64,000 nt of DNA. Source: an uncultured Thermoprotei archaeon. GTDB taxonomy: Archaea; Thermoproteota; Thermoprotei; Thermofilales; B15-G2. The DNA is taken from positions 32,001-96,000 of the forward strand of contig CBDUKN010000002.1 of NCBI GenBank assembly GCA_965367815.1. The letters are read 5' to 3'. The translations under genes and the position numbers were made by a program. How positions within the stretch are numbered: the stretch's first letter is position 1; each line of letters starts with the position of its first letter. The notes under the pieces are model-generated. The model did no database searches, was not told the DNA's origin, and saw nothing but the letters and a program-made list of their open reading frames with translations. Below are positions 1,760 through 56,947 of the stretch, one piece after another.

Positions 1760-2521
1760 ATGCAAGCAATTAAGCATACTATTGTTCACTCCGCTGAGCT
1801 TAAGAAGCTTTACGCTCCTCAAAGGAACATTATTTGTATTGTAATAGAAACTGAAAAAGAAGAAGAAATAATGACCAAACTACTGAGCTACTATGCTTCT
1901 CGTAAAGTAAAGCTCCTGAGTACTTCTGTAACGCTTCATCCTGAGTCTCCGAGGGCGTACATTACTTCTATTCTTGATATAACTTCAATAGACATGGACG
2001 TAGCTAGTCTAGTTAGGGAGATAAGGTCTTTACCCTATATTCACAGAGCTGAAGTTCTCGAAACTCCTATGACAAGAGCAAAAGCACGACTAATTACATT
2101 TACCTTAAGAGAGTTTTCAAGTATTATTAAGGGAGCATACGAGAAATTCGAAGACGCCGGAGCGGTCTTTCTTTACTTCTTAGGCTATGAAATGGGACTA
2201 GATATAGCGGAAGATATTACAGAGAAGTACTCTGACTATGATGCCTTAAACCACTTCTTCTTTTGGATTAAAGCTCTCGGATGGGGTGACTGTGAAATCA
2301 TAAAGTATATCGATAAAAGGGAAGTAGTAGTAGAGGCTAAGAACCTGTTTGAGTGTATGATATTTCTAGGAGAGAAAAAGATTCCTACAAGTCACTTATT
2401 TAGAGGACTACTGGCTGGATTTACTGAAGCCCTATGGAGAAAGAAAACTGAAGTTACTGAAGAAACATGCATTGCCTGCGGAGACCCTGTATGCAGATTT
2501 ATAGTGCGCACTACTGAGTAA
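1760..2521 (+). CDS. ACT + V4R domain ligand-binding protein
   Basis: C-terminal LGWG...NLFEC...SHLFRG...ETCIACGDPVCRF V4R signature; ACT-like N-terminus. Confidence 0.8.
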   Translation: MQAIKHTIVHSAELKKLYAPQRNIICIVIETEKEEEIMTKLLSYYASRKVKLLSTSVTLHPESPRAYITSILDITSIDMDVASLVREIRSLPYIHRAEVLETPMTRAKARLITFTLREFSSIIKGAYEKFEDAGAVFLYFLGYEMGLDIAEDITEKYSDYDALNHFFFWIKALGWGDCEIIKYIDKREVVVEAKNLFECMIFLGEKKIPTSHLFRGLLAGFTEALWRKKTEVTEETCIACGDPVCRFIVRTTE

Positions 2522-49784: not shown

Positions 49785-50675
49785 GTGAGAATAGCTGCTG
49801 TTAGCGACATTCATCACCCGGCTTCAACTATTCTAGTTAAGCTGGCTCAAGTACTGCGTAAGAGCGAAATCGACTTAATTGTTTTCGCAGGCGATGTAGT
49901 GAACTGGGCCGATGAGAAGTACTTCAAGAAGCTGTTGAAATTTATTAGAAGATTCTTTAAAGGGCCTCTTTTAGCTGTTTCAGGCAATCATGAGCACTGG
50001 CTTAGCGGTAGAGAAAAGAGAAGGGGGTTAACTAGTATCGAGAAGCTGAACAAGCTAGCTAAGCTTTACGAAGAATATAACGGAGTACTACTAGATGTAA
50101 AGGGTCCCTGCAGAATAGGAGACCTGTATGTTGTAGGTGTAGTAGGCTGGTATAACTATAGTTATGCTCAAGGTTTAGGGTTTACTGAGAAAGATTTCGA
50201 GAACTGCAATCCTTGAGGCTATAGTCTCCACAAGCTTGAAATAAAGGAGAAACGGGGGATAGGCTCTTGCCCATCGTGGTTTAGAGACTGTCTGTACGTG
50301 GAACTGAGTATGTCTGCTAGAGAATATGCTGAACTAAATGCGAGAAAGCTTAGAGACCAATTGGTCCGCGCGGGATCTCGTAGAAGTATTGTCATGCTTC
50401 ATCACTGTCCTCGAAGAGACCTCATTAAGTACACGGGTAATCGTTATGAAGACTTTTACTTAGCTTATGCGGGTCACCAGAAATTAGACGATATTATAAG
50501 GAGCTGTGGGAAAGTTTTCCTAGTGATTTATGGTCACTTACATGAAAAAGCTCTTGAGCCTACAGCTCAGAAGAATGGACTTACTTATGTTAATCCCTAT
50601 CCTCTGTACCCCTTGCTGAACAGGAAGATAACTCTGATTGAAGTTGATGAATATAAGGGAAGGTATTGTCTATAG
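49785..50675 (+). pseudogene. Metallophosphoesterase interrupted by one in-frame TGA
   Basis: ORFs 49785..50216 and 50298..50675 share a reading frame (CNP*GYS...). SDIH, GD and GNHE lie before the stop; HH and GHLH lie after it. Confidence 0.8.
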
Positions 50676-50737: not shown

Positions 50738-51613
50738 ATGTATTTTGGTGGATTCATGGATTATCTGATTGTAGACACTTATCCCGGTTTCGTGCTCGCT
50801 TTATGTGAGAATCCGGGTAAGTCTCCGCTGGCTACATGGGAGGAGTTTTACAGCAAAAAATTTCCTAAAATTTATGAGCTTCAGATAGGTAATTACGGGG
50901 AAAATTGGAGAATTTTTGCTGAGAAATATGTTTTCTCGAAATTTACTTCATGGTTTCCTAAAACTAGCCGCGTTTGGAGAAATCTACTATCAGTAATACC
51001 TTATGCTTACAGAGAATTCGCTAAGTCCTGGAGGAATAGACTAGGCGTCGTTTTTGTGGTTTATGTGGGGATAGGATGTGGTGCTGGCTGGGCAACGGAG
51101 TACAGGGGGAGAAAAGCTGTTTTACTTGGACTAGAGAACATAGTAGATTTGAATTGGTGTAGTTTAGAGGATTTACGTGGCCTGATAATACATGAGCTAG
51201 CGCACTTAATTCACATGGAGTTGAGAGGCCTATCTGCTAGGGAATTCGAAAAACTTGAATCGGATCCCCTGTTTCTGCTTTATAGTGAAGGATATGCGAC
51301 ATATATTGAAGAAGAGCTGACGGGAAAAGGTCTTGCTAGGATAGCTTCAGATAATAGCTGGCTGAACTGGTGTAAGTGTCATTTAGGTTTTCTTTCAAGA
51401 AAATACTTAAGTCGGATAGAGTCTGGTAAGCCTGTAAATGATTTCTACGGCTCCTGGCTGAGTATAGAGGGGAAGAGCCAGACCGGCTACTATCTTGGAT
51501 ACGAGTTTATCAAGTACTTAGCGCGTAAAACTTCTTTAAGAAGCATAGCGGTGTTGAATGTCAAAAAGATAAAAGAAGAAGCGATGTGTTTCCTAAGAGC
51601 TCTCGCCAATTAA
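50738..51613 (+). CDS. Putative Zn-dependent protease (DUF2268-like gluzincin)
   Basis: HELAH...SEG.A; GYYLG. Confidence 0.72.
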   Translation: MYFGGFMDYLIVDTYPGFVLALCENPGKSPLATWEEFYSKKFPKIYELQIGNYGENWRIFAEKYVFSKFTSWFPKTSRVWRNLLSVIPYAYREFAKSWRNRLGVVFVVYVGIGCGAGWATEYRGRKAVLLGLENIVDLNWCSLEDLRGLIIHELAHLIHMELRGLSAREFEKLESDPLFLLYSEGYATYIEEELTGKGLARIASDNSWLNWCKCHLGFLSRKYLSRIESGKPVNDFYGSWLSIEGKSQTGYYLGYEFIKYLARKTSLRSIAVLNVKKIKEEAMCFLRALAN

Positions 51614-51647
51614 AGAATAAATAGCCTTAGATAAAATACTAGTTGGG

Positions 51648-51702
51648 GCGATGAGGAAGCGCTGTCCCCATAAGACCGGTGAAGCCCCTCCCCCTTTGCC
51701 GA
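51648..51702 (+). ncRNA. Putative non-canonical box C/D guide sRNA
   Basis: GCGATGA, guide AAGCGCTGTCCCC, degenerate D', GTGAAGC, guide CCCTCCCCCTTTG, CCGA; GC-rich intergenic segment. Confidence 0.5.
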
Positions 51703-51748
51703 GCCGATGTAAGCGGCTGTATGTTCATTGTTTCGCTTAAGTAGCTGA

Positions 51749-51797
51749 GTGATGACCGCACGCGGCACTGAAGAGTGACGAGTACCAAACCGGCTGA
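51749..51797 (+). ncRNA. Box C/D guide sRNA
   Basis: C GTGATGA 51749-55, guide CCGCACGCGGCA, D' CTGA 51768-71, C' GTGACGA 51775-81, guide GTACCAAACCGG, D CTGA 51794-97. Confidence 0.9.
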
Positions 51798-51852
51798 CTT
51801 CTATGCTCACCCATGGAACTAGTATTGTACTTGACTTTACTAGATGGCTTTC

Positions 51853-51969
51853 TCCTTTATAGAGGATTGTGCTGATACATTTTTATTTCCCTGTAAAGGA
51901 TATATTAGCATATGAATATTCTCCTCTATAGGGGTGAATAATTATGGAGTTTAATTCCTCTAGAGAGGG
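51853..51969. repeat. Four phased imperfect palindromes, consensus TCCTCTATAGAGGA (putative operator array)
   Basis: TCCTTTATAGAGGA at 51853, TTCCCTGTAAAGGA at 51887, TCCTCTATAGGGGT at 51922, TCCTCTAGAGAGGG at 51956; spacing 34/35/34 bp. Confidence 0.75.
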
Positions 51970-53404
51970 TATAAGAGTTCGTGTTTTAGATTACATTAGG
52001 CGTCTCCTGGTTACTGCTCCTCATAAGGCGCTCTTGTACACGCGCCGAGGTAGACAAGAGCTTCCTTACAGATGGATTTTCTATAGACTAGTAAGCTACG
52101 CTCGTAGTTTTGCTGAAGGCTTTACTGAGAATAGGCTGATCATGATACCCGGTTTGAGGGGTACTGGGAAGACTACTGTTTTGTGGCAACTGTACAGGTA
52201 TTTAGTTGAGGAGAAAAAAATTAAACTAAAGTATGTTTTATTTCTGCCTGTTGACGAACTTAAGACACTTGTTGGCGGAGATATCTATGAAGCTGTTAAC
52301 TGTTATGAAGAATTACTGGGAAGGCGTCTGGAAGAGCTAGATAGACCTGTATTTCTTTTACTCGACGAGATTACTTATGATCCTAAATGGCCTTCAGCAG
52401 TTAAGGCTATTTACGACAGATCTCCCATGGTATTCATAGTAGTCTCGGGCTCATCTGCTCTTGCTTTGCAAATGACCCCAGATTTGGCCCGCAGAGGGAT
52501 TAGAGAAATTCTTTATCCGATGAGCATGGCCGAGTACTTAATGCTTAAGTACAACAAATATCTGCAGAAAAATTTCATAAAGCGCCTCAAGGCTGCTCTT
52601 TTCGAGACATTTTCGCCCGAAGAAATGCTTGAAAAGCTAGAGATTTTACACCGAATGCTAATGGCTATAGACCTCGACCTACGTACTTTAGTTAGCAGTT
52701 ATCTTAAGTTTGGAGGCTTACCTTTTACTATGCATGGCGACGAAATTACCTACGAACAAGTTTACGATGTAATTGAAAGAGTAATTAACAAGGATTTTGC
52801 AGCAATATATAAAATGAAAAGTGAAACTAGAGAACGAACAGCTGCTCTACTAGCTGGGCTCTCTACACATCCACCAGGACCTCTTTCAATATTAAGTATA
52901 TCGAAAAGCTTAGGAATTAAGTACGATACTGCGAGAAAAATTCTTCAAGCATTAGAGCACTCCCTAATTCTATACTCAATACCTCCTTACGCAAAAGGAC
53001 TAGCTCAAGCTAGAAAACTGCGTAAATACTGCTTCTCTACACCAGTGATACGTGCTGCACTAGCTTTTCGCTTAGGCTGGCCTCCAGAGGATCTTTTAGG
53101 CGCAATGCTAGAAGATGCTGTGCTTTCTACACTTATACGCCTTAAGGCTACATATCCTAAAATAGTGGGCGTTCATTACGACCCGAAAGAAGGAGGTGCA
53201 GACGCAGTAGTAGAGGTACGTACAGGTAAAGGAACGATAAGTGTACCATTAGAAATAGAGTGGGGACTGAAAGATGGACGGCAAGTAAGGAATACTATGA
53301 AGCATACGTCGTCTTCTTACGGAATAATAGTCGATGATGTAATTAAACCTGAATTAGACAAAGACGTCATTCATGTACCTAAATACATATTTCTTCTGCT
53401 GTAA
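51944..53404 (+). CDS. AAA_14 ATPase with wHTH and DUF4143-like C-terminal domain
   Basis: GLRGTGKTT, LLDEI, SGSS, LYPMS..EY, GGLP, HTH-like segment, E......AD...LEIEWG. Confidence 0.85.
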   Translation: MEFNSSREGIRVRVLDYIRRLLVTAPHKALLYTRRGRQELPYRWIFYRLVSYARSFAEGFTENRLIMIPGLRGTGKTTVLWQLYRYLVEEKKIKLKYVLFLPVDELKTLVGGDIYEAVNCYEELLGRRLEELDRPVFLLLDEITYDPKWPSAVKAIYDRSPMVFIVVSGSSALALQMTPDLARRGIREILYPMSMAEYLMLKYNKYLQKNFIKRLKAALFETFSPEEMLEKLEILHRMLMAIDLDLRTLVSSYLKFGGLPFTMHGDEITYEQVYDVIERVINKDFAAIYKMKSETRERTAALLAGLSTHPPGPLSILSISKSLGIKYDTARKILQALEHSLILYSIPPYAKGLAQARKLRKYCFSTPVIRAALAFRLGWPPEDLLGAMLEDAVLSTLIRLKATYPKIVGVHYDPKEGGADAVVEVRTGKGTISVPLEIEWGLKDGRQVRNTMKHTSSSYGIIVDDVIKPELDKDVIHVPKYIFLLL

Positions 53405-53440
53405 AGTAATCATTAGAAAAGCATTAGCAGTCAAACTTTC

Positions 53441-54331
53441 TTACTTCAGTAAGTATTTTTGCAAGATCGCTATATCTTCTAGTATGTGCATGTCGCAAGG
53501 TCTCTCTATGATAACGCTGCCTTTATAACCTTCTTCTGCTACTGCTGCAAATACTTTGGCGAAGTCTACTGTCCCTAAGCTTAATGGATTGTGGTCGTCA
53601 CGTTCCCCATAATTGTTGTTTACATGAATATTTACTACAAATTTAGATACTTTTCTGAAGAATTCTTCTGGCCTCTCATAAGATAGATTTGCGTGACCCA
53701 CATCGAACGCTACTTTGAGTGCAGATGAGTTTACTGCTCGAAGTATTTGAAGCAGTTCTTCGCTACTTCTCCCAAAATGCGATGAAACTAGCTTTTGGCC
53801 ATGTTCTATGTGGAAGTAATCCATGTTTTCTAAGGCTAGCAGCACTTTTCGCCTAGCTGCATAAGAAGCTATTTTCTTTAAATTAGCTGTCATAGCCTTG
53901 AAGGCTTCACGGTATTCTAGTAACTTTTCTACATGCCGTGACGGCTCATAGTTTGAGAAGCTGGGCTTGAAGTAAGCAGGGTGAATTGTTATGATATGTA
54001 TATTGTTATTTGAAGCTATCTCAATTATTGAGAATAGTTCTTCGAGAACTTTTTTACGTACTTCAGGGTTTCTGTAGGCTAGTTTTACTGAATTTTCTAC
54101 ATCATGTACTTGTATACAAATATTACTGTAGTTTAGTTTACCTAATACTTTTAGCAGTTTTCTTAAATCGCTGCTGTCTTCTATGCAGAACTCGTAGCAT
54201 CTTATATTAAGATTAAGTAGGCGATCTAATATATGTTTAGTTATTTTGAATAGCTCGTCTATATTGAGATTTTTAAGTTTCTTATGGTATATTTTTTCAT
54301 AGGTTTCTGTAACCATTACTCCTATTATCAT
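53441..54331 (-). CDS. Sugar phosphate isomerase/epimerase family protein
   Basis: LALENM, FDVGHA, IHVNNN.G..DDH.PL..G.VDF, IIE. Confidence 0.82.
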   Translation of the reverse strand: MIIGVMVTETYEKIYHKKLKNLNIDELFKITKHILDRLLNLNIRCYEFCIEDSSDLRKLLKVLGKLNYSNICIQVHDVENSVKLAYRNPEVRKKVLEELFSIIEIASNNNIHIITIHPAYFKPSFSNYEPSRHVEKLLEYREAFKAMTANLKKIASYAARRKVLLALENMDYFHIEHGQKLVSSHFGRSSEELLQILRAVNSSALKVAFDVGHANLSYERPEEFFRKVSKFVVNIHVNNNYGERDDHNPLSLGTVDFAKVFAAVAEEGYKGSVIIERPCDMHILEDIAILQKYLLK

Positions 54332-56947
54332 TGTTTCACTTTAAGGCTTACCGTAATTATTTCGAAGGGTTTCGCTTCAATAGAGACAGTATTCTCGTCG
54401 ACTTTAAGTTCCTTTATCTTTTCTTCAAGTAGATTTGTTTCATTTGCTGCCTCGATTTCCTTGAAGAAAGTTATTTTGCCTCTGGTTTTTCTGCCTTCTG
54501 CTTCGTAGAAGCGGAGTACTACTTCATTTCCTTTGAAAGACTTCTTGAGGGCTACTAGTACTAGGTTTTCGGGAAAGAGTTTTAGAAAGCTGTATTCTTT
54601 TAGTAGTTTTCCTTTGTGTTTTGTTGTTTTCAGGGGTATGAGGGGATTGTTGAATTCGAGAGCTACTTTATATGATTTTGCCTCGCGCCATGATTTCTCA
54701 TGTGGGTATAGAGAATACTCGAATACGTGGTATCCTTTTTCTAGTGCCTTTGGACCCATTTCGTAGTAGATATAGTATTTGCCTGATCTTTCTAGGTAGG
54801 CTTTGGCTAGTTTTATTAATCTGAGCTGTCCTATGGGTGCTGAGAGGTACATAGCGTTAATGCTTCTTAATAGAGTTAGTATTAGCGTGTTTTCGACTAC
54901 GCTGTTTCCCGGGATACCTTTATTGATTAAAGTAACTCCGTAGTCGTTGTTCGAGTAGTCTACCCAGTTTACTGCGGGGTATTCTCCTTCGCTTCTTTTT
55001 ATTGCTCCGTAAGGTATTTCATGCCATATTTCACCTTTCTTGATGTTTACTGGAAAAACTACTCTCAGTCTCTTGTTTTCGTCTCCGAACTCTATTTCCG
55101 TTATGAAGTCTATTCCTTTGACTTTGTCGTAGATTATGGTGAGCTGAGTGTATTTGCTGTTTCCGATAACACCTTTTGAAACCATTACTGCTCTTACGGG
55201 GCCTTTTTCGGCTATTATTCCCTGGGGAACACACATGCTCGTGTTAAGTGTTGTTGGGTTCGGCGGGTCTTTAATAGGAGTTACTACCTGGTGAGCATCT
55301 ATGTCGCCGTTTATATTGCAGACTGACCCGTAGTCAGGCTCCATGAAAATGGTGTTCGCAAGATACTTGCTGCAGTCTAGTACCTCTCTTTTCGCTTCCT
55401 TATCGTATATACTGACAATATTCTTTGATAGTGTATCGAAACTTATTTTAAAGTATTGATTTTCTATAATATATTCGCCTTCTTTTTCGGATACTTTAAT
55501 ACTGGTTTCATATATTCTATTCGAGGGCGCCTCTGCTGACTCTATGTAATATGTTTTGTAGCCTAAAGGCGGCACATTTTCCACTATGAAAGCTATTTTT
55601 ACAGTATTTAATGTCCTGTCGGGATTTCTTCTAGCTTCAATTATTTGTGAAGGTATTTCTTTTCCATTGGAGTCTATTACTTTTAATGTTTTTGCTTTAG
55701 GCCCGCATACAGCTATGTTTACGTAAACTACGTCAGTTCGCGTCCAGGCTAAAGGATTGAATACTACTACTGGTATCTCTCCTTTTTCTGACTGTGTGTC
55801 TATTAGCGATACTATTGACTTAAGTGCTTTTGTTAGTACTTCGCGACAGATACTTTCTGCTGTTTTATAGTTTTCCATTATTTTGTCGTAGACTTCGTCT
55901 ACTACTTCACCGTTTATAGCGTCGTGGAACTGGTTCATTAGAATTAGTTTTAGAGCTTTCTCAAGCTGTTCTTCAGGGTAGTTTTCTCCGAGAACCCATG
56001 TTATAGTGGCGCATTTTTCTGCCGTAAGATAAAGGTTTTCTACCTTTCTGTTAGCTTTCTTTATTTCAATTCTAGTGCTATATGTTCCTCTGAAAATAGG
56101 ATTGAATTCTCCTTTAATTACAGGCAGTTTGCTTGAGTCTTTTTCTAGTGATTTAAAGTACTCGCTTGCAGTAGCGATAGATATCTGCCAGTTTCTCCTG
56201 CGTCTTTTCCATTCCCTTACAATCTCGACTATTGAGCGTTGAGGCGGAGAAAAGTCATCTCCATTGAGTAACATAATGTTTTCCGTGGGAGCTACTTTAC
56301 TTATTTCTCTAGCATTGTTTTCTAGGAAAGATATTGCTCTGTCTATATCGAAAGAACTTATGAGGTAAAAGTATCTTAGCTCTCCTTGAGGCACATAGCC
56401 TGAACTATATCCTAGGAGCGCGATACGTAAGTATTCTAGTGCCGTCGATTCCTTCCCAGAAGAAGTCGCTGGGCATGTTTTTGAGAGCTCCTCGCTAGAA
56501 AACAAAGTACTTTACTCCAGCTTTCCTGAATATTTGAGGACGCTGCGCAGACTGACCATAAACATCAATAAACCAGCCGCACTTAGCTTTTGTACTGAAA
56601 TTCTCTTGAATATACTTTTGGAAAATAACGATATTTCTTGCCAGGAATTCTCCTGAAGGAATATTGGAGTCAGGCTGAGTATAGCCGGAGCAAACGAATT
56701 CTATTAGCTTACTTTCTACAGCTTTCTTGAATTTCTCTACAAGCTCAGGATATTCTTCTACAAATTTTTCAATATAAATTGTTTGATCTAAATTAAATTT
56801 ATACTCATGGTTTTTCTCGAGAAACTCTAGCAGATCTACTATATTTTCTACGGTTATCTTAAAATACTCCTCAAAAGACAGCTGCCAGAGAGCGTCAAAG
56901 TGCCAGTGAGGAATAATGAATATTTTCAGTTGCTTGTTTCCCACCAC
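54328..56947 (-). pseudogene. GH38 alpha-mannosidase, disrupted
   Basis: H.HFD..W and W.IDVYG in the 5' ORF; TAG at 56495-97 followed in frame by RGALKNMPSDFFWEGIDGTRILTY; frameshift near 56415 into the NQFHD/VFNPL/LRFYE ORF. Confidence 0.85.

Follow-up and report, generated by a model that had tools for sequence, protein, structure and literature searches.

What are four evenly spaced palindromes doing across the promoter and first codons of a gene for an AAA_14/DUF4143 ATPase-nuclease? The question is raised by a locus in a 64,000-nucleotide stretch of DNA (hereafter the window) from an uncultured Thermoprotei archaeon (Thermoproteota; Thermofilales; B15-G2; GenBank assembly GCA_965367815.1, contig CBDUKN010000002.1, positions 32,001 to 96,000, forward strand), in which an original prediction, made from the sequence alone, had proposed a phased array as the binding site of the protein encoded behind it. 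Based on comparison with homologous gene starts in archaea and bacteria, with paralogues in the same genome and with a structural model of the protein, we favour, at a probability of roughly 70%, a reading in which the encoded protein, with its ORC-like AAA+ module and winged helix, occupies the four boxes as operators and thereby represses its own gene. The boxes and the gene are as follows:

51853 to 51866, no strand: box 1, TCCTTTATAGAGGA, 1 mismatch, recovered by pattern search and de novo repeat search
51887 to 51900, no strand: box 2, TTCCCTGTAAAGGA, 4 mismatches, a weak copy found by sequence read
51922 to 51935, no strand: box 3, TCCTCTATAGGGGT, 2 mismatches, recovered by pattern search and de novo repeat search
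51956 to 51969, no strand: box 4, TCCTCTAGAGAGGG, codons 5-9 of the gene, 2 mismatches, recovered by pattern search and de novo repeat search
51944 to 53404, plus strand: AAA_14/DUF4143 ATPase-nuclease gene, 486 amino acids, assigned by Pfam and by PADLOC as PDC-S01

Reading of the sequence confirmed the four copies, their mismatch counts against the palindrome TCCTCTATAGAGGA and their start-to-start spacing of 34/35/34 bp, as well as the placement of the last copy inside the first codons of the open reading frame (ORF). A pattern search allowing up to 3 mismatches recovered boxes 1, 3 and 4 among 12 matches in the window (5.37 expected), a total equalled by 1 of 100 shuffles, and a de novo repeat search grouped the same three boxes as one family (D1) with spacings of 69 and 34. 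The genome-wide motif scan that had been proposed found 20 sites with at most 2 mismatches in 2.45 Mb, 3 of them inside the 104 bp of the array, a count that is partly circular as the consensus was built from the array copies themselves. We considered a regulon of the window box elsewhere in the genome and rejected it, the other 17 sites being only singletons and, by rough estimate, close to what composition gives. An Rfam scan of 51400-52100 returned no family over the array.

Among 60 related genomes, a single orthologue was found (72% identity; G041, from a different family of the same class), and it carries four boxes in the same phase, approximately 35/34/33 bp apart by our own count. These read CCACTCTGCAGAGGAG, TCCCGTATAGAGGA, TCCTCTGCAGAGGT and TCCTCCAGATTGGG for boxes 1 to 4, and box 2 of the window, although weak alone, was accepted because its orthologous counterpart TCCCGTATAGAGGA is a good box in the same phase. 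Identity between window and orthologue amounts to 41/56 across the boxes (9, 10, 11 and 11 of 14 positions for boxes 1 to 4, respectively), 33/61 across the spacers and 41/100 in the 100 nt upstream. BLAST homology at the DNA level spans 51895-53406 only, with box 1 added by motif, and array plus gene is therefore the shared unit. Metagenome homologues at 41-45% identity (L090-L093) share the layout with a palindrome of their own (GTTAAT-N4-ATTAAC or GTTTAT...AAAC), present as three boxes, of which the final one again lies over the first codons. Phased arrays are thus present beside close homologues, where the original prediction had suggested they be sought.

To place this pattern within the wider family, 160 loci were collected with gene starts placed by tblastn, of which 144 regions were kept after removal of those with under 130 nt of upstream sequence, of exact duplicates and of the copies of the window and of orthologue L008 (L001 and L009). 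Among these, 31 loci had a pair of like palindromes (6-nt arms, distances of 15-70 bp) spaced by 34 bp, 2 by 33 bp and 3 by 35 bp, against 0-4 loci at each of the other distances, the highest being 68 and 69 bp (4 each), twice 34. The proposed check of the phasing in homologues accordingly came out in its favour, with a pair at 33-35 bp at 35 of the 144 gene starts and at 0/139 and 0/131 of the in-gene controls. An autocorrelation test blind to palindromy, for which 14 or more of 18 positions had to be identical at offset d, was passed by 40 loci for d = 34, by 4 for d = 33, by 3 for d = 35 and by 0-2 for other offsets from 20 to 60; passes comprised 41 of the 81 relatives of at least 31% identity, 4 of the 59 at 25-31% and 2 of the 3 own paralogues. 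Phase-positive archaea included Archaeoglobales, Methanophagales, Methanosarcinales, Methanobacteria, Thermoplasmatales, Halobacteria, Thermoproteota and DPANN, and the bacteria included many of Patescibacteria type. The palindromes themselves are lineage-specific, near-perfect 16-20-mers, many of which are not TATA-like (TGTCCA-N6-TGGACA, TTATTCG-N-CGAATAA); in archaeal relatives they are about 20 bp long, and the form common across lineages is TTxTxxxx-N4-xxxxAxAA.

The same diversity of boxes on a constant phase was observed within the genome of the window. PF13173 was found at 39 places, 22 of which were tested (E up to 3.3e-6, minus one place inside a 739-amino-acid frame), and a private palindrome at a 33-34 bp phase was detected at 4 of these 22, namely the window gene and three paralogues:

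C10:75240: paralogue array, TTGCAGTGTCATTGCAA
C17:40597: paralogue array, TGAGAACTCTTACTTCTCA
C7:75249: paralogue array, ATTCGA-N6-TCGAAT in three copies

Across the whole genome, 436 pairs of like palindromes lay 15-70 bp apart, 9 of them at 34 bp, which is no excess; 29 lay at 33-35 bp, of which 5 fell at the four array-bearing gene starts. The gene starts appear to hold four orthogonal protein/box pairs in one archaeal genome, which would be new.

Where the boxes lie relative to the signals of gene expression was judged by eye and by motif, and two predicted elements coincide with them:

51899 to 51906, plus strand: TATA-like element ATATATTA, at the right edge of box 2, from sequence read
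51931 to 51937, plus strand: Shine-Dalgarno-like GGGGTGA, 6 nt ahead of the ATG, overlapping the right arm of box 3

We presume ATATATTA to be the core promoter by analogy with archaeal relatives, in which a TATA-like hexamer occupies 15 of 26 inter-box spacers (two script-misregistered loci being scored as misses) against 4.3% of control 14-mers. The GGGGTGA-type element, which we take to be the archaeal Shine-Dalgarno motif, has its counterpart in GAGGTGA at the same place in the orthologue. As box 3 lies between the presumed TATA element and the ATG, transcription probably starts inside it; RNA evidence for this start was sought, and no RNA data set containing the locus was among the 17 runs listed. 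The last box in most relatives reaches up to the start codon, ending just ahead of the ATG, while the window protein is about 10 residues longer at its N-terminus than most of them and its last box is therefore coding. In bacterial relatives, box 1 was seen by eye over the spacer and -10 element of a TTGACA-type promoter, followed by box 2. An RNA hairpin or attenuator was rejected as the function of the boxes, given that archaeal relatives have at least one box upstream of the TATA-like element, and such a box would not be transcribed.

That the array is nothing more than chance or plain promoter repetition, in which AT-rich archaeal promoter DNA with tandemly duplicated TATA-containing units would need no specific binder, could draw on the imperfect, TATA-cored boxes of the window, on the TATA-like elements in both spacers of three-box archaeal arrays and on genome-wide pairs at 33-35 bp that are not rarer than at other distances. 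This is already very unlikely, and the least probable of the explanations weighed here, given that the sharp 34-bp spike is confined to these gene starts, that many of the lineage-specific near-perfect palindromes do not resemble TATA and that bacteria with sigma-70-type promoters share the phase. In orthologue boxes 1 and 3, moreover, the centre has changed from TATA to TGCA with the dyad kept.

The position of the start codon may also differ between the window and its orthologues. At the place of the window ATG, both L008 (1498-1500) and L089 (424-426) have CTG, and the first start that follows in frame is a TTG at codon 8, within box 4; this would imply either a non-canonical start or a start within the operator.

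The protein that would bind these boxes was examined through its domains and a structural model. We place its start at 51944, the sole in-frame ATG, GTG or TTG ahead of Met67; gene callers elsewhere recorded a 420-amino-acid form (P0002) starting at Met67, and residues 10-66 are conserved in relatives. Pfam AAA_14 covers residues 63-199 (6.6e-20; 71.9 bits against a cut-off of 27) and DUF4143 residues 284-429, the latter by a narrow pass (2.6e-7; 31 bits against 28.1), while PADLOC matched PDLC04787 (E 8e-27) and five more PDC-S01 models. An AlphaFold2 model of the 486-residue protein (predicted local distance difference test 94.4, predicted template modelling score 0.92) begins with a long helix (residues 7-33), followed by the AAA+ core, a lid, a winged helix-turn-helix and, at the C-terminus, an alpha/beta domain; three of these parts are placed on the DNA as follows:

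52130 to 52543, plus strand: AAA+ core, residues 63-200, Walker A GLRGTGKTT, Walker B D141 E142
52820 to 53035, plus strand: winged helix-turn-helix, residues 293-364, from the secondary structure of the model
53084 to 53383, plus strand: PD-(D/E)xK-like C-terminal domain, residues 381-480, with E390, D420, E437, K443 and Q447

In an alignment of 74 sequences, G70, G75, K76, T77, T78 and D141 of the ATPase core are invariant and E142 nearly so, all being present in the window protein. Within the winged helix-turn-helix, helix 327-339 is presumed from the model to be the recognition helix; searching solved structures by sequence produced weak, marginal matches to helix-turn-helix regulators over residues 294-354 (E 0.16 and 0.4). 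The start of this helix varies with box type among relatives, as in the five loci that combine SPT[LM][IV]R with TTATACAT. Foldseek placed Orc1/Cdc6 on origin DNA first (2qby_A, E 2.5e-8, template modelling (TM) scores 0.34/0.42), with ORC subunits, the STAND proteins Apaf-1/CED-4 and the archaeal ATPases 2fna and 2qen among the other top matches, and none of the 10 Pfam matches of the protein at E up to 0.1 was to a Cdc6/ORC family. A homodimer prediction (two copies, alignment A3) scored 0.01 against a mark of 0.42 and speaks neither for nor against a dimer.

The C-terminal domain of the window protein reads LEIEW where an ExK lysine might be expected, from which the original prediction had argued for DNA binding rather than cutting. 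This argument did not hold: the position of that lysine (439) is Gly in 61 of the 74 relatives, with Glu solely in the window protein, so there is no special loss here, and a conserved lysine, K443, lies nearby. LEIEW is, as judged from the alignment, a family trait that is uninformative on nuclease activity. The other residues of the domain are widely kept (E390 in 74, D420 in 71, E437 in 73, K443 in 60 and Q447 in 70 of 74), and DUF4143 is listed, in the part of PMC3424549 available to us, as a PD-(D/E)XK family of unknown function.

Self-binding with repression is the simplest account of these observations, since a lineage-private palindrome is always found with one gene, on its promoter, at a fixed period and in both domains of life. 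In detail, two symmetrically arranged subunits of the protein would occupy each palindrome of about 20 bp, with one such pair on every 34 bp. Adjacent pairs would together cover the TATA-like element, what is probably the transcription start, the site of ribosome binding and the first codons. Filled boxes would exclude TBP/TFB or RNA polymerase, such that the gene would repress rather than activate itself, holding a potentially harmful ATPase-nuclease low and buffered, and gene and array would form one portable cassette. The proposal that the array is the cognate, autoregulated site of the encoded protein is strengthened by comparison, through the fixed phase, a box sequence that varies from lineage to lineage, the private boxes of paralogues and the lack of a common neighbouring gene, while binding by the protein itself is predicted from the joint occurrence of gene and boxes.

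Several observations weigh against this account. The window boxes, with 1-4 mismatches, miss the autocorrelation threshold at 33-35 bp; they are too degenerate for that test, and the case beyond chance therefore rests mainly on conservation in relatives, among which the phase reached threshold in only about half of the closer ones and in few of the more distant. A period of 34 bp corresponds to approximately 3.2 helical turns, a non-integer number by which cooperative binding on the same face is not obviously favoured. At strain level, contigs from runs X1 and X5 differ from the window at 5 positions over 51650-52083, of which two fall in box cores and a third adjoins box 3:

51856: strain variant T>C, in box 1
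51936: strain variant G>A, in the Shine-Dalgarno-like element, beside box 3
51967: strain variant G>A, synonymous, in box 4

In this small sample of five differences there is no sign of purifying selection on the boxes. Finally, the proposed test for covariation of the motif with the winged helix-turn-helix, run as a partial Mantel scan of 48 windows of 10 residues, gave a noisy result. Of 36 loci, 22 entered the scan on the basis of box register, 8 with boxes that were poor or out of register having been removed at an earlier stage. Partial r was highest at residues 71-80 (0.36), 291-300 (0.35) and 281-290 and 421-430 (0.30 each) and only 0.09-0.12 over the presumed recognition helix (321-340); the scan singled out no reading head, and its p values fail correction for the 48 windows.

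This last result bears on whether the boxes instead serve a separate transcription factor encoded elsewhere, with the ATPase as a merely regulated target. The scan did not point to the recognition helix, and it is by inference that we name the ATPase as the binder. Nevertheless, box sequence differs among the four paralogues of one genome and across phyla and domains while the phase stays constant, so a separate factor would have had to be co-transferred and to co-diversify every time. Among the 456 ORFs flanking 44 array loci, no family occurs at more than 4 loci, and the unit in common with the orthologue consists of array and gene only. We consequently regard a separate factor as quite unlikely.

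The resemblance of the protein to Orc1/Cdc6 raises the further possibility that the array is an iteron, origin or recombination site, on which the ORC-like protein would assemble to replicate, partition or move the cassette, control of the gene being a side effect. In archaea, origin recognition box repeats lie beside the orc1/cdc6 gene, and the window locus is similar in its AAA+ core, lid and C-terminal winged helix and in having repeated, dyad-containing boxes beside the gene of the presumed binder. It differs in its low TM scores, in lacking any Cdc6/ORC Pfam match and in its added PD-(D/E)xK-like domain, as well as in the several paralogues per genome with boxes of their own, whose strict 34-bp phase sits on a promoter rather than flanking an unwinding element; several arrays per genome argue against an origin role. 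Plasmid iterons are direct repeats bound by a Rep-fold initiator on the replicon, with phased sites in or near the initiator's own promoter through which it is autorepressed. The arrays described here share the phased sites beside or within the promoter of the presumed binder's gene, but are palindromic, mostly chromosomal (on contigs of chromosomal size, up to 905 kb) and associated with an AAA+ fold.

A relative on plasmid pNP174 of Methanosphaera sp. ISO3-F5 (L202 488-570; 31% identity) speaks for an origin-type arrangement, with three direct repeats TATTTTGTAAAAGATAAAA before its start, though these differ from the arrays in their 32-bp period and lack of a dyad. Its plasmid belongs to a methanogen in culture, and this relative might serve as a tractable model. 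Beside the T. barophilus pTBMP1 relative, inspection by eye revealed single unlike palindromes and no phased array.

Patchy distribution, with one orthologue in 60 related genomes, is likewise what a mobile or replicating element might display, and the gene is an indel between congeners:

51698 to 53447, no strand: segment absent from the same-genus genome G001, comprising the array, the gene and a C/D-box-like small RNA

G001 has 315 bp of unrelated DNA in its place. Around the segment there are no target-site duplications or terminal repeats longer than 9 nt, and no mobility or replication genes lie next to the window gene, whose neighbours are unrelated (a peroxiredoxin, a metallophosphoesterase, a DUF2268-like protein, a sugar-phosphate isomerase-type TIM barrel and a GH38 mannosidase). 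There were no phage matches and only three plasmid records, from two plasmids. Of the suggestion that gene and array form a self-contained mobile unit, the self-contained part is supported by the shared unit and the missing segment in G001, whereas mobility is not. With the boxes lying exactly on promoter elements and start codons, we judge an origin-type role to be improbable, and somewhat more so than a separate factor.

A defensive role had also been suggested, and is a candidate role only. In its favour, the protein carries the PDC-S01 label, a defence candidate that the available part of PMC12988326 ranks fourth in abundance across prokaryotes and counts about 10,000 times in archaea and 29,000 times in bacteria. 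The available part of a preprint (bioRxiv 10.1101/2024.09.26.614923), however, does not count its one PDC-S01 representative among four protective systems and reports that with it E. coli B remained unprotected from T7, T5 and T4. One elaboration of self-binding, which we consider unlikely but raise tentatively, is that the array serves as the assembly platform of a one-gene immune sensor, a phased filament parked on private sites at one pair per 34 bp and approximately four pairs per superhelical turn. Disturbance, whether by competition from invading DNA, by altered supercoiling or by shifted nucleotide levels, would then release or induce the nuclease, and private specificities would let paralogues coexist in one cell without cross-talk. 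If this were true, PDC-S01 would gain both a mechanism and a defined DNA ligand.

Relative to PDC-S01 as described (Pfam AAA_14 and DUF4143; COG1373), the window protein has both Pfam domains above cut-off and the single-gene ATPase plus PD-(D/E)xK architecture found in the available part of PMC12988326. Its subfamily differs in an extra N-terminal region of about 60 residues that includes the long helix, and in the operator array found here; the portions available to us of the literature on DUF4143, COG1373 and PDC-S01, outside the supplements, describe no operators or DNA targets for the family.

Autoregulation through palindromic boxes has precedents in other systems. Ss-LrpB of Saccharolobus solfataricus binds regularly spaced imperfect palindromes on its own promoter as cooperating dimers and is thereby autoregulated. 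The window array is alike in having several imperfect palindromes at regular spacing over the promoter of its own gene, and differs in its 34-bp period, its occurrence in both domains of life and its putative binder, a 55-kDa AAA+ ATPase-nuclease rather than a small Lrp-type protein. In type II restriction-modification systems, a separate small helix-turn-helix regulator, the C protein, acts on palindromic operators (C-boxes) and expression is self-limited after transfer. Here too a portable cassette with a potentially harmful nuclease bears palindromic operators of its own, but regulator, ATPase and nuclease-like domain would be one polypeptide.

What is new in the present locus and its relatives is the exact 34-bp period common to archaeal and bacterial members of the subfamily, together with the layout of TATA elements in the spacers. 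We know of no ligand, target or mechanism for PDC-S01, and a phased, lineage-private array on the gene's own promoter would offer the family its first concrete and testable DNA partner. The four protein/box pairs of one genome would provide a ready specificity code, and the fact that archaea and bacteria keep one fixed period indicates a defined protein-DNA assembly whose structure could be determined. The array would also account for a nuclease-bearing gene moving between hosts as a self-limiting cassette.

Some further observations were made in the course of the genome-wide palindrome scan. An excess of pairs at 15 bp (31 pairs) was rejected as a true signal, as these were mostly long palindromes overlapping themselves and 2 of the 24 collapsed places precede AAA-type genes with real repeats. 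A gene of the ATPase_2 PF01637 plus DUF234 type (G000:C12 near 34174; L184 about 1935-1985, minus strand) has three TATACTCTAGAGTATAA-type palindromes at a 15-bp period, which run into its TTG start, and this suggests that self-operator arrays may also occur in this 'archaeal ATPase' family. Ahead of a second AAA-type gene (weak AAA_14, 407 amino acids; G000:C19 near 50514, L187 upstream of 1450) lie GGTAACC-N-GGTTACC-like palindromes, also at a 15-bp period.

Two elements were noted upstream of the array. The C/D-box-like small RNA element (TGATGA ... CTGA ... TGACGA ... CTGA) lies just ahead of it at 51745-51799 on the plus strand, within the segment absent from G001, and has sub-threshold Rfam matches to several archaeal C/D families, the best being sR7 (25.6 bits against a gathering threshold of 37). 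Positions 51611-51697 (87 nt, after the DUF2268-like gene) are 79% identical in the same-genus genome, hold GGGGCGATGAGGAAGCGCTGTCCCC, whose ends can pair; this may be a conserved terminator or small RNA.

Two of the neighbouring genes are split. The GH38 alpha-mannosidase is divided into two overlapping ORFs (54328-56947, minus strand), of which 56495-56947 encodes the N-terminal domain and 54328-56505 the rest, and the metallophosphoesterase (49785-50675, plus strand) likewise into 49785-50216 and 50298-50675. Frameshifts, pseudogenes or errors of assembly could lie behind both splits. Lastly, contigs from runs X1, X3 and X5 match the window up to 52083 and then continue as 55634 onward, by a unique match and with no repeat at either site, which indicates that the natural population includes a form lacking 3,550 bp. 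This form retains the array and 46 codons, and what it lacks is the remainder of the ATPase gene together with the TIM-barrel gene and a portion of the GH38 gene; in X1 the deletion contig has the higher word depth (35 against 11.9).

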